Positions 3,491-50,014 of a DNA stretch of 64,000 nt are shown in pieces. Source of the stretch: Patescibacteria group bacterium (GTDB lineage: Bacteria > Patescibacteriota > Patescibacteriia > Patescibacteriales > UBA12465); contig JBBACQ010000002.1 of the NCBI GenBank assembly GCA_041656935.1, positions 27,603-91,602 of the forward strand. Reading direction: 5' to 3'. The stretch's first letter is position 1. Every line of letters starts with the position of its first letter. Under the pieces are notes generated by a model. That model had not been told where the DNA came from, did no database searches, and saw nothing but the letters and a program-made list of their open reading frames with translations. A program made the translations under genes and the position numbers.

Positions 3491-6400
3491 ATGATTAATC
3501 GCTATTATCGCTTGTTAAACCCTCAATTAGAACTATGCTTCAATGTTGAGGTGACCTCTCCGTTATCAGATAACGAAGAGTTGGTCTTATTCTGGTTACT
3601 TGCTGAAACTTTCCAAAAAGAAGATTTCGGAAAAGAATCAATGTTAAAATCAGGGAAAATCTTGGAAATTGGTCCCCGACTAAGTTTCGCCACCCCTTGG
3701 AACACTAATGCTTTAAGCATTCTCAAGGAATGTGGATTAAATAAAGTCGTTCGGATTGAAAAATCAAGGCGCTTATTAAATCCCGTTTCGCAGTCAGAAA
3801 ATTTGACCGATTTATATGATCAAATGACTGAATGTATCTGGGATAAAATCCCGGAAAGCTTCTTATCAATTGAAGAACCAAAACCGGTTCTCCAATTACC
3901 CTTATTAGAAAAAGGAATAGAAGTTTTTTCGGAAATTCCAGATTTTAAAGCCATGGATGATTTTGATCGTCAATTTTACTATGACTATTTTGTAGGTGAA
4001 TTAAATCGTAATCCGACTTTTGTTGAGATTATGGATTTAAACAATGCCAACAGTGAACATTCCCGCCATGGTTATTTCAGGGGTAAGCAAATTATTGATG
4101 GAAAATTGATGCCAGAAACTTTAATGGAGATTGTAAAATCAACTTTAAAAGGAAAAAATGAAAAAGGAAGTTTAGTCGCCTTCAAGGACAATTCCAGCGT
4201 CATTATGGCTTACGATTACATCAAAACTTTGATTCCCCAGAAACCCGGTAAAATTTCCAACTTCGTTTTAAAATCACTCCTGTATCATCTCTCATTTACG
4301 GCTGAAACTCACAACTTCCCTTCCGGGATAGCTCCTTTTCCAGGAGCTGAAACTGGAGGTGGAGGACGAATACGTGATGGTCAAGCTGTCGGAATTGGTG
4401 GATTGATAATAGCCGGAACCGCTGGCTATTGTGTCGGGAATTTAGGTTTACCATTTTGTTTATGGGAAAAGAAGGGAGCAAATCCAAAAAATTTGGCTTC
4501 CCCCTTAGACATATTGATTGGAGCTTCTAATGGAGCTTCCGATTATGGGAATAAATTTGGTGAACCCTTAATCTCTGGCTTTGTCCGAACTAGTGCTCTA
4601 ACCGTTAACAACGAAAGACGGGAATGGTTAAAGCCGATAATGTTTACTGGAGGAATTGGACAAATTGATCGCTGGCATTTAGAAAAAATGACACCGCAAG
4701 AAGGAATGCTAATTATCCAAATTGGTGGACCCGCTTATCGTATCGGCTTTGGAGGTGGAAGTGCCTCTTCTCTCATGCAAGGAGAGAATAAATCTGATTT
4801 AGATTTTAATGCCGTTCAAAGAGGAGATGCTGAAATGGAGCAGAAAATGAATCGTGTTATTCGAGCCTGTGTTGAAATGGGAAAGAACAATCCCATTATC
4901 AGTTTGCATGATCAAGGAGCTGGTGGACCGGCTAATGTCTTAAAGGAATTAGTTGAGAAAACTGGTGGTCGAATTGATATTCGTAAAATTCAAGTTGGTG
5001 ATCCGACTATGTCGGTTTTAGAAATTTGGGTTTGCGAATATCAAGAAAGACTTGGCCTAGTGATTGATCCTTCTGACCTAAAAATTTTCCAAAAAATTTG
5101 TAAAAGAGAAAGGGTTAATTGCGAAGTATTAGGTGAGGTTACGGGAGATGGCTATTTTATTGTAGAAGACAGTCAAGCTGGGGCTCTAAATCCTGAACCA
5201 GTGAGAATGGATTTAGCTAAAGTTTTAGGTGGAATGCCACAAAAAACTTTTTCATCAGAAACGATCGTTCCAGAACTCTATCCTCTAATAATTCCGGAAG
5301 GAATTGTTCTTGGTGAAATATTATCCAGAGTTCTAAAACTCCCTTCGGTTGGAAGTAAAAGATTTTTAACCAACAAGGTTGACCGTAGTGTTACGGGGCT
5401 CGTTGCCCAACAGCAATGTTGTGGTCCTTTCCAATTACCAGTGTCTGATTATGCTATGGTGTCTCAAAGCCATTTTCCAGATGAAAGAGGAAAATATTCT
5501 GGAGCTGTCACCAGCATCGGAGAGCAACCTATAAAAATGTTAGTTGATCCATCAGCTGGTGCTCGTATGGCCGTAGCTGAAGCTTTTACTAATATGATGT
5601 TTGCTCAAATTTGTTGGCCCAATACTATCAAATGCTCAGCTAACTGGATGGGGGCACCAAAATTGCCCGGAGAAGGAGCTAAGATGTATTCAGCCGCTTC
5701 AGCTATGAGAGATCTAATGCTAAAGTTGGGTATGGCAGTTGATGGTGGAAAAGACAGTTTATCAATGGCGACCAAAGTCTTTAATCACGATGAGAATAAG
5801 GAAGAGTTGGTAAAATCACCTTTGCAATTGGTTATTTCAGCTTACGCTCCAACAGCCGATATCACGAAGAAAGTCTCTCCCGATATTAAAGAATCGGGAA
5901 ATCACCTAGTCTTTATTGATTTGGCTAATGGGAAAAAGCGTTTAGGTGGATCGGCCTTAGCTCAGGTTTTTGGACAGATAGGAAATGATTGCCCGGACGT
6001 GGAAGACCCCGAATTACTGGTAAAAACAAAGGAAATTGTTAATATTCTCCTAGAGAATAATTTAATCGTTTCTGGCCATGATATCAGTGATGGTGGGTTG
6101 ATTGTTTCTCTTTTAGAGATGGCTTTTTCTGGGAATTCTGGATTTATTATTCATCTACCTGAAAAAAAAGACGAAATTTTTAGTCGTCTTTTCAGTGAAG
6201 AACTGGGCTTAATAATTGAGATAAGCGAACGAACTTTTGAAATAGCTAAAGCATTTTTTTCTGTCGAAAAGATTCCTTTCATTCCAATCGGTTTTACCGG
6301 ACCAAAAGATGTTTTCATCTTTGGCGGTGACAGTGAACTTGTCTTTTCATCTCATTTACAAAATCTTTTTTCTGACTGGGATACTCCTTCTTATGAATTG

Positions 6401-7312
6401 GAAAAGTTTCAAACCAACCTGAAATGCGTAGAAGAAGAAAGGCAACACATTAATTTTTCTAAATCTGGTATTTCTTACGACTTTCACAAAGTCGAAAAAC
6501 CGGTTTCCAGAGATGACTGTTCTCCTAAAGTAGCAATTCTTCGTTCAGAGGGCAGTAATGGTGATCGTGAGATGACCAGCGCTTTCTATCTGGCTGGATT
6601 TGATCCTTATGATGTTCATTTATCTGATTTGCTCTCGGGCAAAACAGATCTAAGTGATTATCAAGGGATCGCTTTTGTGGGAGGTTTTAGTTATGCTGAT
6701 GTTCTGGATTCGGCTAAGGGTTGGGCTGGTATTATAAAGTTTAATGAACGTTTAAGTAGAATGTTTGCTGATTTTTATAATCGCCCTGATACTTTTTCTT
6801 TTGGTGTTTGTAATGGCTGTCAATTAGCAACTCTTTTGGGTTGGGTTCCCTTTGACGATATCATTGATTCTTATCAACCTCGTTTTATCAAAAATACTAG
6901 CGGGCGGTTTGAATCTCGTTGGTCACGGGTGGCTATTTTTAATAGCCCCTCTATAATGTTAAAGGGGATGGAACACCAAGTATTGGGAGTTTGGTCAGCT
7001 CATGGAGAGGGACGATTTTTTGCCGACAAAGAAGTTCTACAAGAAATTCTTGCTCAAAACTTGGCTCCAATCATGTATGTTGACTGGGAAGGTGCAATTA
7101 CTGAAGAATATCCCTTTAATCCCAATGGTTCAGCCCTGGGAATAGCTGGGATATGTGACCCAACAGGACGTCATTTAGCTATGATGCCTCATCCGGAAAG
7201 ATCTTTCTTGAACTGGCAATGGCCATACAAGAATGGTCTTCCAGAAAATGGAGTGTCTCCTTGGCTAACGATGTTTATCAACGCCAGAGAGTGGTGTGAG
7301 AGAAACAGATAA
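3491..7312 (+). CDS. purL: phosphoribosylformylglycinamidine (FGAM) synthase, single-chain large form
   Basis: About 1270 aa with FGAM synthetase domains and a C-terminal glutaminase (GVCNGCQ nucleophile region, HPER motif). ATG at 3491 is preceded by AAAGGAG; the track start at 3437 is a TTG. Confidence 0.9.
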   Translation: MINRYYRLLNPQLELCFNVEVTSPLSDNEELVLFWLLAETFQKEDFGKESMLKSGKILEIGPRLSFATPWNTNALSILKECGLNKVVRIEKSRRLLNPVSQSENLTDLYDQMTECIWDKIPESFLSIEEPKPVLQLPLLEKGIEVFSEIPDFKAMDDFDRQFYYDYFVGELNRNPTFVEIMDLNNANSEHSRHGYFRGKQIIDGKLMPETLMEIVKSTLKGKNEKGSLVAFKDNSSVIMAYDYIKTLIPQKPGKISNFVLKSLLYHLSFTAETHNFPSGIAPFPGAETGGGGRIRDGQAVGIGGLIIAGTAGYCVGNLGLPFCLWEKKGANPKNLASPLDILIGASNGASDYGNKFGEPLISGFVRTSALTVNNERREWLKPIMFTGGIGQIDRWHLEKMTPQEGMLIIQIGGPAYRIGFGGGSASSLMQGENKSDLDFNAVQRGDAEMEQKMNRVIRACVEMGKNNPIISLHDQGAGGPANVLKELVEKTGGRIDIRKIQVGDPTMSVLEIWVCEYQERLGLVIDPSDLKIFQKICKRERVNCEVLGEVTGDGYFIVEDSQAGALNPEPVRMDLAKVLGGMPQKTFSSETIVPELYPLIIPEGIVLGEILSRVLKLPSVGSKRFLTNKVDRSVTGLVAQQQCCGPFQLPVSDYAMVSQSHFPDERGKYSGAVTSIGEQPIKMLVDPSAGARMAVAEAFTNMMFAQICWPNTIKCSANWMGAPKLPGEGAKMYSAASAMRDLMLKLGMAVDGGKDSLSMATKVFNHDENKEELVKSPLQLVISAYAPTADITKKVSPDIKESGNHLVFIDLANGKKRLGGSALAQVFGQIGNDCPDVEDPELLVKTKEIVNILLENNLIVSGHDISDGGLIVSLLEMAFSGNSGFIIHLPEKKDEIFSRLFSEELGLIIEISERTFEIAKAFFSVEKIPFIPIGFTGPKDVFIFGGDSELVFSSHLQNLFSDWDTPSYELEKFQTNLKCVEEERQHINFSKSGISYDFHKVEKPVSRDDCSPKVAILRSEGSNGDREMTSAFYLAGFDPYDVHLSDLLSGKTDLSDYQGIAFVGGFSYADVLDSAKGWAGIIKFNERLSRMFADFYNRPDTFSFGVCNGCQLATLLGWVPFDDIIDSYQPRFIKNTSGRFESRWSRVAIFNSPSIMLKGMEHQVLGVWSAHGEGRFFADKEVLQEILAQNLAPIMYVDWEGAITEEYPFNPNGSALGIAGICDPTGRHLAMMPHPERSFLNWQWPYKNGLPENGVSPWLTMFINAREWCERNR

Positions 7313-8131: not shown

Positions 8132-8234
8132 CATATAACGTTCGCTGATATCTGACGTTTTGCCACTTCCTTTAAAAATCAATTTAGTGTGGCAAAATGT
8201 GGCTTTAGCCCTTGCAGATATCAGCTGTTGTGTG
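8132..8234 (-). other. attC-like imperfect-palindrome site, copy 1
   Basis: CATATAAC-GTTC-GCTGATATCTG...CAGATATCAGC-T-GTTGTGTG with inner stem TTTTGCCAC/GTGGCAAAA. Lies directly 3' of the nucleotidyltransferase stop codon. The structured repeat is certain; function as a recombination site is inference. Confidence 0.6.
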
Positions 8235-8287
8235 TCCCGAAGGGTCGGAGCGAAGCGGAGAAGTTGGTTTCTCTGGCGTCGTGATTA

Positions 8288-9058
8288 TTAAGTAGGACTT
8301 TTGATTTTCCAGCCATCAATATTAAATCCTCCCATTTTTTCAAGAACATGATTTGTTGCTATTTTATATTCATTCATCATTTTTGACTTATCTTTTAGGT
8401 TGATGGCTGAGACAATCATTTTAACAAATTTTTCATCTGGGAAATTGCTTACAAGATACTTTTTCTTGTCTTTTTCGTTTACTAGAAAACGTCTTAATTT
8501 ATGAATAGGTATTGAATCAAATTGCAAAAATTTCGCATAAGTTTCAAATAAATCATTCAAACAATTATAGAAAACAAAAAAGAATTCTTCCGACTTTGAA
8601 TCAAAAACTTCTTCTAAATTATCACACATATCCCAAATGTGGTATTTTGCTATTTCAATTTGGATCTTATTTTGCTTCGGATTTTTCTTTTGCAAATACT
8701 TTTTGGAATATTTAACAAGTTCTTTTAATTCGCCTGTTTTATCAAAAAGTATTTTTCCAGTACAGAACATGTGAGCGTTTATCTTTCTTCTTGATTTCAG
8801 ATCTTCTTCCAAGTATTGATGATGTCTTTTTGTTGGATTAGCGAAATATTCGATCAAAATACCATCGATAATTTCATTACCTCTTTCTCTCCAGGAAGTT
8901 TTTGCATCTAAAAGGATATGAATATCAATATCTGAATGATTACTAGGATTTCCAGTGATATAGCTACCGCAAACAATAGCCCCAATTACTTCTTTTTTGT
9001 TTTCCCATTTTTTGAGAAATTTTTGTAGGGCAATTCCCCAGTTTTCTTGTTTTTTCAT
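8288..9058 (-). CDS. nucleotidyltransferase-domain protein (Pol-beta superfamily, KNTase/ANT-like)
   Basis: 256 aa with N-terminal motif GSYITGNPSNHSDIDIHILLD (GS-X-D-X-D) and a helical C-terminal domain. Confidence 0.75.
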   Translation of the reverse strand: MKKQENWGIALQKFLKKWENKKEVIGAIVCGSYITGNPSNHSDIDIHILLDAKTSWRERGNEIIDGILIEYFANPTKRHHQYLEEDLKSRRKINAHMFCTGKILFDKTGELKELVKYSKKYLQKKNPKQNKIQIEIAKYHIWDMCDNLEEVFDSKSEEFFFVFYNCLNDLFETYAKFLQFDSIPIHKLRRFLVNEKDKKKYLVSNFPDEKFVKMIVSAINLKDKSKMMNEYKIATNHVLEKMGGFNIDGWKIKSPT

Positions 9059-14233: not shown

Positions 14234-14254
14234 AAGTTTTTGTAATTATTGAAA

Positions 14255-16141
14255 CTAATTCCCCTCACTCTCCCCCGCAACCTCTTCTTCCGTCCCCGCT
14301 TCTTCTTCGGCTTTCGGTTCTACTCCCACCAAACAGACCTCTCGCCAAGGAACATATTTAGAATAAATTCTCTGTTCTATTTTATTTTCATTTTCCAATT
14401 GATAATTATAAATCACCGTATAGTCAAAATAAGCTTCAGCTCCCGAATGAGCTCTCTCAGTACATTTCTTTTCCCCGGGGGCCAAATCAGTTGTTTCAAT
14501 AATTTGTGTTGGTCCTGGCTGAACAATATTATAAATCACTGGATAAGTTGTAGTAGCCATTCTTCCATCGGACTCCCCCCAAAAATCAAAATAAATATCA
14601 TTACTACCTTCAAACCGAGCTTGAATTAAAATATTATTTCCCGTATCATTTTTAAATTTTAAATCTGGTCGGGGACTATAAATAGTAGCATCAGTTCCAG
14701 CGGGTTCATAATAAGAAACCCGGTAAGAATGATTACGCCTTTCAGTTATTGGCAATCCAACAGCTAAAGCCGATCTAAACATAGTAGTAGCAATCTGGCA
14801 AAGACCGCCCCCATACTCCGGAACAGTTTTATTTCCCTTAATAACCAACTCTGGCAAATAACCAGCTTCTTTAGTTGTTTCCCCTAAGGCCTTAACTAAA
14901 GAAAACTCTTCATCTGGTTTTATTATTAAACCGTGAAGTTTACTGGCGCCGACTTTTATATTATGTCGTCGATTAACTGGAGAACCAGCAAAATTAGAAT
15001 GGCCTGTTCCAATTATTTCTTTTATCCCTAAATCATTAATACCATCAACCTTTTCTATTTCTTCCACCTCAACTTCTAGAAAAATATCGGCCATATTTCT
15101 CTTCTCAAAGGCCTCCGTCAAATTAGAAAAACTATTTTCATAATTTAATTTCAGACCATCGGCTCCGGGAACAAAAGAAACTACTCGTCCATCTTTAAAT
15201 TCAAAATTAGGTAAAACTGGGTCAACATTAATCTCTGGTTTAATAAACTCATCTAAAAAAGCACTAAATTTAGAAAAATCCAAACCTAAGGCCCCGCCCT
15301 TCGTTTTTCCATTTACTATATTAGGCGTTAAAATTATCCAAGAAGAAAAATCTGAAACACTAACAGCAAAATTTTTACTATCAGCTTGATAAATTAGATT
15401 AAAGGGAGCTAAATCAGATAGAATCTCAGCTTCGCTATCTAAACCGATAACATCATTCTCCGTTAATAAAGGTTGATCATCAACTAACTTTAAAAAGATA
15501 TCGTTATTTTTTAATAAACTAATATTTTCTTCAAATTCCAACAAAAAATCTTCTCGATCTATTTTATAACCAAAACTTTCCGGTTCAATAAAAAAATCTA
15601 ATTCTTCCGTTTCGCCCTCTTCGGTTTTTTTGTGGAAAGATAATTTAGCCTCCTGCGCTGGATTTTCTAAATCAGAAAAATTGTCCTCTAAAATTAACAA
15701 AAGTTGATTTTTATCAACATTAAATACTAACGGAACTTCCGTTTTAAAAAATAAAGATTTTATTTTCACAAAAAAATCTTTAAGCTCTCCTTCTCGACCA
15801 ACATAATAAATATTTTCCACTGTTTTATCAACATCAAAAACTACTGGCTGAAAGGAAAGGTCGGGATCAAAAGAGGAAACCGAATTATGCCAGGTAATTT
15901 CCCTTTCTGAGAGTTTTATCTTAAACCCTTGAAAGTCAAACTTCTCTATTCTTTGTTTTAATAAATTTTTAGCCTCTTCCTCATCTAACCCAGAAAAATT
16001 AATACCAGCTGAATAAACGTTAAGATAGACACAATTATCAAAAACTTTAGAAAAAATTAGATAGGTTAAAGATAAAAAAAGAATTAAAAATAAAAAAACA
16101 TCTAAACTTATAAAAATAATTTTTTTAAATTTAATCTTCAT
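14255..16141 (-). CDS. VanW-family protein, N-terminally membrane anchored
   Basis: 628 aa with N-terminal TM helix and VanW core GGGLCQIATTMFRSALAVGLPITERRNHSYRVSYYEP. Confidence 0.8.
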   Translation of the reverse strand: MKIKFKKIIFISLDVFLFLILFLSLTYLIFSKVFDNCVYLNVYSAGINFSGLDEEEAKNLLKQRIEKFDFQGFKIKLSEREITWHNSVSSFDPDLSFQPVVFDVDKTVENIYYVGREGELKDFFVKIKSLFFKTEVPLVFNVDKNQLLLILEDNFSDLENPAQEAKLSFHKKTEEGETEELDFFIEPESFGYKIDREDFLLEFEENISLLKNNDIFLKLVDDQPLLTENDVIGLDSEAEILSDLAPFNLIYQADSKNFAVSVSDFSSWIILTPNIVNGKTKGGALGLDFSKFSAFLDEFIKPEINVDPVLPNFEFKDGRVVSFVPGADGLKLNYENSFSNLTEAFEKRNMADIFLEVEVEEIEKVDGINDLGIKEIIGTGHSNFAGSPVNRRHNIKVGASKLHGLIIKPDEEFSLVKALGETTKEAGYLPELVIKGNKTVPEYGGGLCQIATTMFRSALAVGLPITERRNHSYRVSYYEPAGTDATIYSPRPDLKFKNDTGNNILIQARFEGSNDIYFDFWGESDGRMATTTYPVIYNIVQPGPTQIIETTDLAPGEKKCTERAHSGAEAYFDYTVIYNYQLENENKIEQRIYSKYVPWREVCLVGVEPKAEEEAGTEEEVAGESEGN

Positions 16142-27339: not shown

Positions 27340-27621
27340 TTAAGATCTTCTTTCTTCTTGATAGGCCTTATATCTCCTAACGAATTCATCAATATCGTCT
27401 TTGTGGATTTTAACATCACAATAATTTCCTGGGTTTCCTAGAATACGAAGGCCATCGCCCAAATTTGGACAATCACAACTCTCATCACCGAAAGCATAGG
27501 CAACACCATATTGACCTTGTTTTTTTAATATCTGTCTTGAGACATCTCCAAAATTAACAAAACCGTCTTTATCTGCCTCAAATGAAGGTTTTTGTTCAAA
27601 CGATGATTCTTTGGGTCCCAT
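27340..27621 (-). CDS. hypothetical Cys-containing small protein
   Basis: 93-aa ORF with ATG start; no recognised motif. Confidence 0.5.
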   Translation of the reverse strand: MGPKESSFEQKPSFEADKDGFVNFGDVSRQILKKQGQYGVAYAFGDESCDCPNLGDGLRILGNPGNYCDVKIHKDDIDEFVRRYKAYQEERRS

Positions 27622-27714: not shown

Positions 27715-27802
27715 CACATAACGTTCGTTGATATCTGACGTTCTCCGTAGCGATAGCAGAGGAGAATGTGGCGAAGCCCTTGCAGATATCAGCTGTTATG
27801 TG
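27715..27802 (-). other. attC-like imperfect-palindrome site, copy 2
   Basis: CACATAAC-GTTC-GTTGATATCTG...CAGATATCAGC-T-GTTATGTG with inner stem TTCTCC/GGAGAA. Lies directly 3' of the HD gene stop codon. Confidence 0.6.
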
Positions 27803-27838
27803 CCCCAAAGGGTCGGAGCGATAGCGGAGATGTAAATC

Positions 27839-28423: not shown

Positions 28424-28450
28424 AAAAATAAAAGGGGTTTAAGATTTATT

Positions 28451-28547
28451 GCACATAACGTTTGCGGATATGAGAAGTTGCGACCGTAGGGAGCAATTTG
28501 GGTGAGCCCCGAGCCGAGGGGCGAACCTCATATCCGCTGTTATACGC
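28451..28547 (-). other. attC-like imperfect-palindrome site, copy 3
   Basis: GCACATAAC-GTTT-GCGGATATGAG...CTCATATCCGC-T-GTTATACGC. The 11-bp stem differs from copies 1 and 2 at three positions, all compensated on the other arm. Confidence 0.6.
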
Positions 28548-28601
28548 CCCGACGACTGAAAGGAGGAGAGCGCAGCGTGGCACGGAGCGAAGCGGAGTGA
28601 G

Positions 28602-28694
28602 TTCAAAAAATATTTTTCGTTCTCATTAATTATGATAGGCTTTCCTCAATTCTTATAAATTTGATTTTTTCCGTTTTGAAAAATGAAAGAGGGG
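28602..28694. repeat. left arm of a long imperfect inverted repeat flanking the rSAM-methyltransferase pair
   Basis: Collinear identical blocks versus the reverse complement of 30727-30813: 17 nt (28602-28618), 13 nt (28632-28644), 14 nt (28657-28670) and 7 nt (28688-28694). Confidence 0.8.
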
Positions 28695-46768: not shown

Positions 46769-46780
46769 AAGTAACAAGGG

Positions 46781-47554
46781 TCAAGAAACTACTTCACGGG
46801 AACGCAAACCATAATCAGAAAAGCCAGGACTACACCGCCCGACACCGAGCCCGCCACCGCTAGAACACCAACGAACACGGGGAACATAGCCATCAGAATA
46901 GCGCGAACCAGTACACAGCGTCCGATTACTGATGTCTAAATGCTTTTTGGTTCTATCAAAATACAGAATTTCTAATAACAATCTTTCCATCAAGGTAATT
47001 CCCTTGTGGTTCATAACCTTCAATTGATCAGCTGGAAAATCTTTGAATTCCTCATCAGCTTCAATGTTTCGGTTAAACAAAACAATATAGTCACCATTTT
47101 TAGCATCTCTATCATTGTGATTCACAGAGGTGTCTAGGTCTTCTTTATGCAAAGAAACCTTAAACTTCAGCCTCATCTCAGCTACAATCTGATTCTTCGT
47201 AAGTCCTTGAGCGACAATGACCGCAAAGTGCTTTCTGGGGTCATAGTGTTCTGGAACCTGCAAATCAGAAAAATCTTTCTCTAGACCGAACCATTTTTTG
47301 TAGATCCTCTGCCAAGTGGATTTAATTTGACGACTATTTTTGTTGTCGTCAAACAAACACTCAGCAAAAGCCTCAATAGCGGGATCTTTTTTACGACCAC
47401 TTTTTATAACCTCAGCTACCTTCTTCGCCAGAATAGGATCAGATCTCAACAAAGAAAGATCGCTCAAAATGATCCCCTGATCTTGCAGAGCTTTTAAGGT
47501 TGCTCCAACCTCGCCATAACTGGCGTTCCATAAACCAGAATTGTCTTTTTTCAT
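46781..47554 (-). CDS. hypothetical protein, paralog A
   Basis: ATG at 47552-47554 preceded by GGAGG. Central 170 aa are near-identical to paralog B; N-terminus and C-terminal tail are divergent. Confidence 0.7.
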   Translation of the reverse strand: MKKDNSGLWNASYGEVGATLKALQDQGIILSDLSLLRSDPILAKKVAEVIKSGRKKDPAIEAFAECLFDDNKNSRQIKSTWQRIYKKWFGLEKDFSDLQVPEHYDPRKHFAVIVAQGLTKNQIVAEMRLKFKVSLHKEDLDTSVNHNDRDAKNGDYIVLFNRNIEADEEFKDFPADQLKVMNHKGITLMERLLLEILYFDRTKKHLDISNRTLCTGSRYSDGYVPRVRWCSSGGGLGVGRCSPGFSDYGLRSREVVS

Positions 47555-47638
47555 GACTTTTCCTCCACATTTTATGCCTTGTCTGATATAAATTACAGAC
47601 TTTGGCGGGTTAATAATAATTTCAAAGAACATATCTCT

Positions 47639-47856: not shown

Positions 47857-48603
47857 TTAGGAAGAAACTACTGCGCGGGAACGCAAAAAGTCACTAGAAC
47901 GGTCAGGATACGACCAAATAACACAAAGCAAGCCATCGCTAGAATTCCAACCGACATCGGGAACACAGCCATCAGAATCGCGCGACCCAGTACACAGCGT
48001 CCAATTACTGATATCCAAATGCTTTTTGGTTCTATCAAAATACAGAATTTCTAATAGCAATCTTTCCAGCAAGGTAATCCCCTTGTGTTCTATCGCCTTT
48101 AGCTGGTTAGCTGAGTAATTTTTGAACTCTTCATCAGCTTCAACATTTTTGTTGAACACAACGATATAGTCGCCATTTTCGGCCTTTCTATCATTGTGAT
48201 TCACAGAGGTGTCTAGGTCTTCTTTATGCAAAGAAACCTTAAACTTCAGCCTCATCTCAGCTACAATCTGATTCTTCGTAAGTCCTTGAGCGACAATGAC
48301 CGCAAAGTGTTTGCGCGGGTCATAATTTTCCGGAACCTGCAGGTCAGAAAAATTTTTCTCTAGACCGAACCATTTCTTGTAGATCCTCTGCCAAGTGGAT
48401 TTAATTTGACGACTGTTTTTGTTGTCGTCAAATTTCTTAGCAAAAATTGTTCCGACCAAATCATAAATCGGATCGGGATTATTAATCAGGTTGCTAACCT
48501 GCCCCGATGAGGGGTTGGCCTTATTAAGGGCTAATTCTATAATTCGCAATAGCTCCATACCTTGTTTGAAGCTTGCTGGACTTTGGAAACTCTTGTTTTC
48601 CAT
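47857..48603 (-). CDS. hypothetical protein, paralog B
   Basis: ATG at 48601-48603 preceded by GGAGG. Shares the core ...DDNKNSRQIKSTWQRIYKKWFGLEK...LCTGSR... with paralog A. Confidence 0.7.
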   Translation of the reverse strand: MENKSFQSPASFKQGMELLRIIELALNKANPSSGQVSNLINNPDPIYDLVGTIFAKKFDDNKNSRQIKSTWQRIYKKWFGLEKNFSDLQVPENYDPRKHFAVIVAQGLTKNQIVAEMRLKFKVSLHKEDLDTSVNHNDRKAENGDYIVVFNKNVEADEEFKNYSANQLKAIEHKGITLLERLLLEILYFDRTKKHLDISNWTLCTGSRDSDGCVPDVGWNSSDGLLCVIWSYPDRSSDFLRSRAVVSS

Positions 48604-48733
48604 TTTTACCTCCATTTTTAAAGGGTTTATAAAAAGAACAAATTTATAAAAAATATTATCATATTTAAATTAATTTGTCAATATAGCATTTTTTTATAAT
48701 CTATACTATTATACTTTTATACCGAGAAAATCT

Positions 48734-48807
48734 GGTCCGATGGTGAAGTGGTTTAACACTACAGTTTGCAAAACTGTCACTCGTGGGTTCGAATCCCACT
48801 CGGACCT
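48734..48807 (+). tRNA. tRNA-Cys (anticodon GCA)
   Basis: Acceptor GGTCCGA/TCGGACC, anticodon stem ACAGT/ACTGT, loop TTGCAAA, T-arm GTGGG-TTCGAAT-CCCAC. Confidence 0.85.
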
Positions 48808-49284
48808 CTGAAAAAAACAACCCAAACTGCTTTGGGTTGTTTTTTTTATATGACAAAAGAGTGGGATGAGAAAGCCGGAGCCCATGTGCACGAAGTGCAC
48901 GGGCGAGGCCGGGTCGGGGCGCTTGTTTTTATCAAGCCGAAGGCGCAGAGAAAAACTTAGCGACCGTGACCGAATCCCACTCGGACCTCTGAAAAAAACA
49001 ACCCAAACTGCTTTGGGTTGTTTTTTTTATAAGACAAGAGAGTGGGATTCGAAAGCCGGAGCCCATGTGCACGAAGTGCACGGGCGAGGCCGGGTCGGGG
49101 CGCTTGTTTTTATCAAGCCGAAGGCGCAGAGAAAAACTTAGCGACCGTGACCGAATCCCACTCGGACCTCTGAAACATAAGAAGCTAACCTGCGTTAGCT
49201 TCTTATGTTTTATATGACAAAAGAGTGGGATTCGAAAGCCCTCCTTCGCCATATTTCATATGGCTTCGGCGGGCAAGCCGGAGC
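48790..49284 (+). repeat. tandem repeat seeded on the tRNA-Cys 3' end (period 181 bp; two full units plus a variant third)
   Basis: CGAATCCCACTCGGACCTCTGAAA occurs at 48790, 48971 and 49152. Units 1 and 2 are near-identical. Unit 3 keeps the ends but has a different terminator hairpin and interior. Confidence 0.9.
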
Positions 49285-49301: not shown

Positions 49302-49616
49302 TTATTTTTTACGAATAGATTCTAAATTAGCTTTTAAATTAACATAAAAATCTGGAGCCTTTATCTTCATCCCTAAGGCGTCAGCTATTCTAGCTAAGAA
49401 ACTCAAACTGGGCAAATCCAAGCCCCTCTCCAATCTAGATATGCTCGATTGTTTAGTGAAAAGTCGCTTAGCTAATTCTTCTTGAGTTAAACCCATCATT
49501 AACCTAGCTTTAATAATGTTTTCCGAAACCTCAAAAACTAAATTAGAATTGTCATAATAATATTTTTTGAAGTCTTCATTTTTAAATAATTCTTTTTTTA
49601 TATTTTTTAAACTCAT
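49302..49616 (-). CDS. XRE-family HTH protein, HigA-like antitoxin
   Basis: 104 aa with HTH ...MGLTQEELAKRLFTKQSSISRLERG... Lies directly downstream of the toxin-like gene. Confidence 0.7.
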   Translation of the reverse strand: MSLKNIKKELFKNEDFKKYYYDNSNLVFEVSENIIKARLMMGLTQEELAKRLFTKQSSISRLERGLDLPSLSFLARIADALGMKIKAPDFYVNLKANLESIRKK

Positions 49617-49633
49617 AATTTTATTTTAATTAA

Positions 49634-49996
49634 TTAAAAATTTAATTCTAGTTCTTTTTTTCTTTTCTCAGCTAACTCAATTTCGTCAACTGGGGTTTTC
49701 TTTTTTTTCTTGTAAAAAATATTGGTTAAATAAAAATTACCATTAATAATCGAGAAAAATATCCTATAATTAGCCTTCTTCCAATTAATTATTAATTCAA
49801 AAATATTTTTTCTACCTTTTATCTTCTTAACTAATTTAATTCTTAATAAAAGATCTAAATTATTTTCTTCTAATCTTTCCAATGTTTTCAAAATCTTTTT
49901 AGCATGATCAACTCTCCCTTTCAAAAACAAGTCATTTATATATAACGAAATTAATAAATCACCTCGAGAATTAAAATATTGTCTGATATTATTCAT
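49634..49996 (-). CDS. RelE/HigB (Gp49-like) family toxin
   Basis: ...NIFELIINWKKANYRIFFSIINGNFYLTNIFYKKKKKTPVDEIELAEKR... fits the HigB/Gp49 pattern. ATG at 49994-49996; the track start is a TTG. Confidence 0.6.
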   Translation of the reverse strand: MNNIRQYFNSRGDLLISLYINDLFLKGRVDHAKKILKTLERLEENNLDLLLRIKLVKKIKGRKNIFELIINWKKANYRIFFSIINGNFYLTNIFYKKKKKTPVDEIELAEKRKKELELNF

Positions 49997-50014
49997 TATA
50001 ATAAATAATATCAA

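Follow-up and report, generated by a model that had tools for sequence, protein, structure and literature searches.

A candidate family of tRNA-anchored structured RNAs arrayed in tandem downstream of tRNA genes in Patescibacteria

Introduction

Islands and prophages located in tRNA genes are reportedly flanked by att repeats, and Williams is said to have described in 2002 (Nucleic Acids Res) a T-loop sublocation used by tyrosine integrases. We focus here on a locus resembling such sites in a 64,000-nt window (the whole stretch of DNA analyzed: positions 27,603 to 91,602, forward strand, of contig JBBACQ010000002.1, GenBank assembly GCA_041656935.1) from a Patescibacteria group bacterium, in which a tRNA-Cys gene is followed by an array of 181-bp repeat units. 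As with the att repeats of tRNA genes, a direct repeat of the 3′ part of the tRNA, reaching from the T-loop to the tRNA end, bounds the element, an intact tRNA lies on one side, and one tRNA can accumulate tandem copies whose number changes. The locus differs in its payload of only ~157 bp, in having no integrase inside or nearby, in its conserved, covarying hairpin interior, in a mirror copy of the tRNA end, and in the occurrence of the same interior beside at least six tRNA types.

Further points of comparison come from small RNAs and retroelements. TnpB reRNA and IscB omega RNA are guide RNAs of transposon-encoded nucleases, and the Mauriceville and Varkud retroplasmids of Neurospora possess a tRNA-like 3′ end, capture tRNA sequence and integrate by homology. 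Patescibacteria have tiny genomes, and what is known of their RNA biology mostly concerns introns and standard RNAs. The group I introns of Patescibacteria tRNAs described in PMC13011429 are anticodon-loop introns, and no description of the present element was found in the literature. On balance, we somewhat favor interpreting the locus as two complete and one truncated tandem genes for a structured RNA of ~125–135 nt, belonging to a tRNA-anchored, Patescibacteria-wide family that is apparently undescribed and uncatalogued.

Architecture of the repeat array

The tRNA-Cys(GCA) gene occupies window positions 48734–48808 on the + strand, as do all features of the array (ARAGORN; 63 bits with the Rfam tRNA model). 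CCA is not encoded and the discriminator is U73. The last 18 nt of the tRNA, from C56 to U73 (48790–48807), constitute the first copy of the repeated 3′ end; together with a 6-nt trailer they form the first copy of the 24-mer direct repeat CGAATCCCACTCGGACCTCTGAAA (48790–48813), which comprises the 3′ part of the T-loop, the T-stem 3′ strand, the acceptor 3′ strand and the discriminator. As stated in a first-pass annotation of this DNA, the 24-mer recurs exactly at 48971 and 49152, a spacing of 181 bp. No other site exists in the 64 kb with up to three mismatches, and the chance expectation for 24-mer repeats is 0 (100 shuffles). Tandem Repeats Finder delimits the array at 48790–49240, with a period of 181, 2.5 copies and 93% matches. 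The near-identity of the first two units noted in the same annotation amounts to four differences in 181 positions (48851, 48857, 48868 and 48869), all of which fall in the linker and the 5′ strand of helix P1 (see below), with interiors that are 100% identical. The conspicuously GC-rich blocks of these units reach 64–65% G+C against a background of ~31%.

Each full unit closes on itself, since the first 12 nt of the 24-mer (CGAATCCCACTC) find their reverse complement in the 12-mer GAGTGGGATTCG on the 5′ side of each GC-rich block. The result is a closed three-way junction (P1, P2 and P3) of ~125 nt, with a TATAnn box ahead of it and its own hairpin and T-run behind. The order within a unit is P1, a GAAA junction, P2, P3, a single-stranded tail GGACCUCUGAAA, the hairpin and T8. 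P1 (9–11 bp) pairs GAGUGGGAUUCG with CGAAUCCCACUC, the latter copying the neighboring tRNA from C56 of the T-loop through the T-stem 3′ strand, and the 3′ tail repeats the acceptor 3′ strand and discriminator of the tRNA. P2 consists of a GCC/GGC base, a GGA/GA internal loop and a 10-bp hairpin above, while P3 is a long hairpin with a GGUC.../...GACC base.

In unit A (48859–48994), the minimum free energy (MFE) fold places P1 at 48859–48867/48974–48982, P2 at 48874–48876/48907–48909 and 48880–48891/48895–48904, and P3 at 48912–48933/48948–48971; the tail together with the P1 3′ strand is the second copy of the direct repeat (48971–48994). The corresponding helices of unit B (49040–49175) are P1 at 49040–49050/49153–49163, P2 at 49055–49057/49088–49090 and 49061–49072/49076–49085, and P3 at 49093–49114/49129–49152, with the third copy of the direct repeat again formed by the P1 3′ strand and tail (49152–49175). 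Both folds are far more stable than expected (z = −7.84 for A and −8.91 for B), none of 200 shuffles being as stable.

The terminator-like hairpins listed in the first-pass annotation are borne out by inverted repeats. The first copy of hairpin h1, AAAAAAACAACCCAAA-CTGC-TTTGGGTTGTTTTTTT (48811–48846), is also seen in the fold and in family comparison; it has a stem of 16 bp when A/T-run pairs are counted, a CUGC loop and T8 after the G+C core, and is likely the intrinsic terminator of tRNA-Cys. An automatic terminator scan did not call h1, the T-run having been counted into the stem. Many family members likewise have an A-CUGC-U loop here. The second copy of h1 (48992–49027) is the predicted terminator of unit A, and a different hairpin, h2 (49173–49210; 17-bp stem, loop in the region CCUGCG), also found in relatives, is the predicted terminator of unit B.

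Behind each hairpin lies a 33-mer. Its first copy (48844–48876) combines the T-run with a −10-like box (TATATG) and with the P1 5′ strand GAGTGGGATGAG, where two substitutions cut P1 of unit A to 9 bp; the second (49025–49057) contains a TATAAG box and the intact P1 5′ strand GAGTGGGATTCG at 49040–49051. The third, TTTTATATGACAAAAGAGTGGGATTCGAAAGCC (49208–49240), carries a TATATG box, GAGTGGGATTCG at 49223–49234 and AAAGCC. As previously annotated, the third unit keeps the 24-mer and this 33-mer and then diverges. It is a truncated unit, or stub, consisting of the hairpin, the 33-mer and 18 nt of the RNA 5′ end, and P2, P3 and the closing strand are absent. The interior earlier described as different corresponds to the 3′ flank of the HigA-like (HTH) gene that converges on the array. 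Homologous stubs occur in the related loci L048, L099 and L148.

Covariation and searches for known RNAs

Covariation was assessed on a MAFFT alignment of 21 units. Double changes that keep pairing were observed at 15 of the 27 predicted pairs. Paired cells amount to 92.9%, compared with 35–50% when the 3′ partners are slid by 1–3 columns, and the covariation score is 0.466 versus 0.07–0.12 for slid partners, with none of 500 shuffles reaching the observed values. Two P3 positions are mostly G·U; because the other strand would give A·C there, the fold is assigned to the tRNA-sense strand. In the tRNA-Cys lineage, P2 and P3 differ in sequence among the window, L048, L099 and L151 yet stay paired. 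A covariance model (R2) built from 17 sequences, with the window, L048, L099 and L132 left out, matched the window at 49042–49171 (64.2 bits, E = 1.4e-16) and at 48861–48990 (49.3 bits, E = 3e-12), recovering units B and A.

The Rfam search proposed in the first-pass annotation was run with Rfam 15 on the window and on the canonical relatives L141 and L134, at gathering and E-value thresholds; only tRNA models passed, and the element was unmatched. A weak sX4 match (26 bits versus a threshold of 70) covers a tRNA-Ser and its downstream complement. No hammerhead core (CUGAUGA) and no tmRNA-like acceptor pairing were seen on reading the sequence. Pairing of the CUGC loop with AGCA(G) loops in a kissing interaction was considered and dropped; it holds in L134, L139 and L026b and fails in the window lineage, L130, L129 and L124. 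Protein-coding units are unlikely, given that open reading frames (ORFs) over the repeat are not conserved and that interior indels are not multiples of three. Separately, one Yanofskybacteria locus (L124, 4933–5053, − strand) contains a LOOT RNA (RF03000, 86 bits) unrelated to the element.

A family across Patescibacteria

Relatives were gathered from several searches. A metagenome scan with GAGTGGGATNNGAAAGCC returned mostly chance matches and three true relatives (L048, L099 and L026), syntenic and non-syntenic, and a genome scan with a 19-mer gave 22 matches, of which ~19 are real. Nearly all of the latter derive from metagenome-assembled genomes (MAGs) of Saccharibacteria, Paceibacterota, Yanofsky-, Vogel-, Taylor- and Parcubacteria. 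Covariance model searching revealed further, more divergent copies in the same loci, following tRNA-Leu, tRNA-Met, tRNA-Arg and tRNA-Ser. Overall, the element is present in ~20 Patescibacteria MAGs, with 20 arrays located at most ~120 nt downstream of a tRNA gene and on the same strand. The upstream tRNA is mostly tRNA-Ser, the others being Cys, Asp, Leu, Met and Arg. The 3′ end of the element copies this tRNA from C56 to N73, exactly so in the 24-mers of the window and consistently across the 20 arrays.

The family plan begins with the tRNA and a terminator or long palindrome, often followed by an acceptor-5′-like mirror of the discriminator and acceptor 3′ strand. A hairpin, usually with an A-CUGC-U loop, then leads to a P1 5′ strand mirroring the T-stem 3′ strand and T-loop, after which come GAAAG, P2, GG and P3 and, finally, the P1 3′ strand, acceptor 3′ strand and discriminator. 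The conserved core consists of GAAAG, P2 with its GGA/GA internal loop, GG, and P3 with a GGUCGCG...UGUGACC base. Interior length ranges from 94 to 184 nt. The 94-nt form is 83–88% identical between Saccharibacteria and Paceibacterota, and the junction nucleotides are invariant across classes of the phylum. These nucleotides (GAAAGCCGGAG, CGAGGC-GG-GUC and GUGACC directly before CGAAU) appear in units A and B as GAAAGCCGGAG, CGAGGCCGGGUCGGGG and CGUGACCGAAUC, the P3 base of both units being a lineage variant.

The outer helices follow the tRNA. Where the T-arm of tRNA-Met reads CCGG-TTCGATT-CCGG, P1 is CGGAATCGA/TCGATTCCG (L138b), and a tRNA-Ser with a CCCGC T-stem is accompanied by a CGGG/CCCG P1 (L122a). 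A generic stem can also close the core, as shown by L143b, whose P1 (AUGUG/CACAU) bears no relation to its tRNA. Upstream of the CUGC hairpin, an acceptor 5′ strand is present in L125, L126, L130, L134 and L138. Full-length members (L130, L138 and L026) pair their ends into an acceptor-like stem of 5–7 bp that stacks on a T-stem-like helix; an encoded CCA follows in some cases. Five of ~14 distal copies end in CCA in genomes whose tRNA genes lack it, which, on these small numbers, hints at a tRNA-like end function or an RNA-level origin. In the window, by comparison, GGUCCGA is not found upstream of either unit and pairing extends only 2–3 nt past the T-stem. With its missing acceptor 5′ strand and weakened P1 in unit A, this lineage appears to carry a simplified or reduced form.

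Two simple origins of the copied strands were rejected. The tRNA-Asp of L126 has a U5·G68 wobble in its acceptor stem, and the element carries GCGACCG, the complement of the 3′ strand, rather than GCGATCG, which excludes a copy of the tRNA 5′ acceptor strand. Plain insertion of the core into a T-loop fails because the left flank mirrors the right flank (AATCGAA for a TTCGATT loop in L138) and differs from the tRNA's own 5′ T-arm half. Two side observations concern the host tRNAs. In L122, ARAGORN reports a tRNA-Ser with the anticodon ACT (6073–6160), unusual for a bacterial tRNA-Ser, 2.8 kb from a tRNA-Ser(GCT), and the element follows both; in L026, a 123-nt match to the Rfam tRNA model (2268–2390, 43.8 bits) suggests a tRNA gene with an insertion or intron.

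The depth of this conservation bears on the reading of the units as functionless relics, arising by tandem duplication of the tRNA 3′ flank or by decayed serial integrations and then drifting neutrally. The two P1-breaking substitutions of unit A, the truncated third copy, the missing acceptor 5′ strand and the degenerate tails of several family copies are what such drift would leave. Against it stand the P2/P3 pairing maintained by compensatory changes in relatives whose protein beside the tRNA is 70–77% identical, the invariant junction nucleotides and the cross-class identity of the 94-nt form, and we regard it as very improbable. Decayed serial integrations, one of three readings offered in the first-pass annotation, in particular fit poorly with an interior that is structurally constrained and identical in both units.

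Another possibility is that the units act in cis on the tRNA: stretches complementary to its 3′ half, along with the extra copy of that half, would let a read-through transcript adopt alternative folds that could modulate 3′ processing, termination or quality control. The tRNA 3′ end, hairpin and mirror strand form one long imperfect palindrome, which in L134 and L126 (− strand; ~430–500 and ~6400–6470) is perfect over 27 bp and spans the acceptor 3′ strand, discriminator, terminator and mirror. The mirror strand of L134 and L138 matches the tRNA's own 3′ end better than the distal copy, and the element always lies downstream of a tRNA on the same strand. A cis role nevertheless sits badly with the strong terminator between tRNA and element in the window and many relatives, does not need the conserved P2/P3 core, and leaves second and third array units without a tRNA of their own; moreover, most tRNA genes in the same loci lack the element. 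We consider this role improbable. Palindromes as long and perfect as those of L134 and L126 are in themselves unusual for bacterial DNA.

Copy number among relatives

Close relatives were retrieved through the lineage-specific protein adjoining tRNA-Cys, and they vary in copy number. L148 has no full unit, only the tRNA, hairpin h2 and a degenerate stub AAAAGAGTAGGATGTCGA; L150 and L099 have one full unit, as does L048, which adds a stub; L151 has two identical full units with a period of 200 and no stub; and the window has two with a period of 181 plus a stub. Given the retained stub, the L148 site could have arisen by deletion and need not be naive. Repeated gain and loss through unequal recombination between direct repeats (24 nt, or 58 nt when h1 is included) would account for the overall distribution, which is also consistent with structural constraint on the interior. 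Hairpin h2 lies beyond the array in L099 as well and directly after the tRNA in L148 (3850–3880), where its loop is inverted (CGCAGG versus CCTGCG at 49173–49210 of the window). Such a flip of the loop inside a palindrome suggests recombination at the DNA level or template switching within the stem.

Copy number in the window was read from a short-read MAG assembly, and an assembler might have wrongly duplicated a single unit. The junction between units 2 and 3 also appears in an independent Logan assembly of another run (SRR18595299, L001), whose contig ends inside the repeat. Assembly duplication is unlikely because the units are not identical, differing at four positions, because of this reproduced junction, and because L151 has its own two-copy array with a different period; even granting the short-read source and the broken Logan contig, an artefact is scarcely credible.

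Expression model

Among the readings in the first-pass annotation, a tandem family of small-RNA genes that reuse the tRNA 3′ end and terminator is the best supported, on the strength of the z-scores, the compensatory changes, and the −10-like box and hairpin/T-run that flank each full unit. In such a model, each unit would be transcribed from the TATAnn box inside the T-run of the preceding hairpin, starting near GAGUGGG and stopping at the next hairpin and T-run. By eye, every copy of the lineage has the box 6–9 nt ahead of GAGUGGG, with a perfect TATAAT in L151; conservation of this box at the same distance in relatives makes it a likely promoter. The P2/P3 core would be the working part, most likely a protein-binding or RNA-binding module, with the tRNA-derived helix providing a stable closed end. 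Full-length relatives with an acceptor 5′ strand would present a tRNA-like end that could be trimmed by tRNA-maturation enzymes. Both transcription of the units and maturation by tRNA enzymes are predicted from sequence. The array itself would grow and shrink through unequal homologous recombination between 24–58-bp direct repeats comprising the tRNA 3′ end and hairpin.

Several observations weigh against this interpretation. A scan for promoters, which requires a −35 element, and for terminators calls neither on the + strand here, and no −35 was found. Every unit is preceded by a strong terminator, which would leave little read-through from the tRNA. Because its 5′ strand was fixed by the search pattern, P1 lacks independent covariation in the seed alignment, and evidence for this helix comes instead from divergent covariance-model copies; in L136, L140 and L141, the P1 5′ strand stays GUGGG although the T-stem of the tRNA differs. 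Not every copy is maintained, as unit A carries two substitutions that break P1 and the stub scores only 10.6 bits with R2 (E = 0.7, not significant). No partner protein or conserved neighbor gene was found downstream of family members. Lastly, a T-loop-to-tRNA-end repeat, a wide range of tRNA types and the presence of 0, 1 or 2 copies are the expected traces of a mobile att-bearing element.

Possible mobility

These traces underlie a possible, though doubtful, alternative in which the units are an integrase-less integrative satellite, that is, 181 bp of mobile DNA that is essentially attP-like. It would insert at the T-loop-to-3′-end segment of tRNA genes, either by a recombinase encoded elsewhere or through an RNA or single-stranded DNA intermediate; insertion would regenerate the target so that arrays accumulate, and the hairpins would be recombination signals rather than working RNA. 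In most loci, the direct repeat runs from C56 to the discriminator or 1 nt beyond, like the identity blocks of tRNA att sites. Hairpin h1 adjoining the tRNA looks element-borne, and the position of h2, beyond the array in the window and L099 and after the tRNA in L148, corresponds to an attL/attR layout. Copies occur at several different tRNAs in one genome. At a non-Cys site, the L132 interior is 87% identical to the tRNA-Cys interior of L048 and 79% identical to the tRNA-Cys copy of its own MAG, which suggests movement or gene conversion between sites. Different toxin-antitoxin cassettes have also been received just beyond the array.

Other findings speak against the satellite. Pfam analysis of eight flanking proteins (DUF3160, YceG, cytidylyltransferase, two without a match, HTH_3, Gp49 and AtpC) shows no integrase or transposase within ~6 kb, the earlier remark having been that the intervening 181 bp have no integrase, and the genes that follow 17 family loci, judged from their translations and in part from Pfam scans, include no evident recombinase. 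Scans of viral contigs yielded nothing real, three matches in one scan having failed the covariance model, and blastn against phage and plasmid records gave no match. L148, the relative with zero copies, keeps the stub, so no truly naive site was seen, and loss through recombination between repeats is an equally good explanation. Nor does plain site-specific integration yield the mirrored tRNA end, made up of the P1 5′ strand and, in relatives, also the acceptor 5′ strand. Furthermore, we know of no attP arms that form covarying hairpins with strand-specific G·U pairs, which counts against the satellite. The amplifiable att-bearing satellite of the first-pass annotation is doubtful on balance: the T-loop-to-end repeat, the 0/1/2 copies and the related interiors at different tRNAs speak for it, and the missing integrase, downstream genes with no link to recombination and the lack of viral, phage or plasmid matches speak against it.

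A related and similarly tentative idea treats the family as a parasite of tRNA genes: a mobile, RNA-structured mini-element without a protein gene that, when inserting, copies the 3′ end of its target tRNA both directly (C56–N73) and mirrored (P1 5′ strand and acceptor 5′ strand), and whose P2/P3 core mimics the acceptor/T helix of that tRNA. Its spread could use an RNA or single-stranded DNA hairpin intermediate, or the 3′ tail could guide a trans-acting enzyme. A miniature transposon with terminal inverted repeats was rejected, as the 12-bp inverted repeats change with the neighboring tRNA (L138b and L122a) and no flanking duplication exists.

Neighboring features

Different toxin-antitoxin cassettes occupy the interval between the tRNA-Cys array and atpC in relatives, suggestive of an insertion hot spot. 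In the window, this interval holds an HTH_3/Gp49 (HigBA-like) pair (49302–50014, − strand); L148 (2873–3708) and L151 (222–1156) have an NTP_transf_2 (MNT-like) gene with a small ORF, and L150 and L099 have no cassette. Upstream of the tRNA, two tandem paralogous genes (46781–47632 and 47857–48615, both − strand) have no Pfam domain and homologues only in Patescibacteria; an exact-protein look-up of the two gave nothing on record. The 3′ ends of both are unusually rich in GC (46775–46932 and 47922–48004), and a near-identical 61-nt terminator region follows each.

Elsewhere in the window, two minus-strand ORFs are separated by a second GC-rich intergenic island (28447–28610, + strand; up to 66%). 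Its fold is a three-way junction with GCGGAUAUGAG/CUCAUAUCCGC as the closing helix (z = −3.2 for the + strand and −1.7 for the − strand), and with no Rfam match at E < 0.1 it is a candidate uncatalogued RNA. Further short stretches at 8198–8288, 14250–14356 and 27737–27831 have at least 55% G+C, compared with 31% for the genome.

Comparison with known systems

If the units encode a working RNA, they add a widespread, multicopy class of noncoding RNA to Patescibacteria; if they are mobile, the family would represent a protein-less element directed at tRNA genes whose ends it rebuilds, with bearing on tRNA loci as insertion hot spots. In either case, the covariance models allow a phylum-wide census, and relatives with 0, 1 or 2 copies provide a natural experiment. 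For a conserved core framed by helices copied from whichever tRNA lies upstream, no described parallel was found.

Individual features do recall described systems. Like TnpB reRNA and IscB omega RNA, the unit is a structured scaffold followed by a ~18-nt 3′ segment equal to the local flanking target; the differences are that no nuclease gene is nearby, that the scaffold is much smaller, and that half of the 3′ segment is paired in P1. With the Mauriceville and Varkud retroplasmids, the family shares small size, a tRNA-like 3′ end and sequence copied from a host tRNA, some distal copies ending in CCA. Here, however, the element is bacterial and chromosomal, no reverse transcriptase was seen, and the CCA enrichment (5 of ~14) is only suggestive. 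ToxI arrays of type III toxin-antitoxin systems are likewise head-to-tail structured RNA repeats ended by a terminator, but their period is ~36 nt versus 181 nt here, and no toxin gene lies downstream in the same orientation, the neighboring HigBA-like pair being convergent and missing from relatives that have the element. Among tRNA-like noncoding RNAs (the tRNA-like domain of tmRNA, YrlA, viral tRNA-like structures and mascRNA), the acceptor-like stem on a T-stem-like helix seen in L130, L138 and L026 is a shared feature. The present family differs in that it has no Rfam match, in that the window copies lack the acceptor 5′ strand, and in its construction: P2/P3 replaces the T-loop, a CUGC-loop hairpin replaces the D-arm and anticodon arm, and the stems are copied from the adjacent tRNA.

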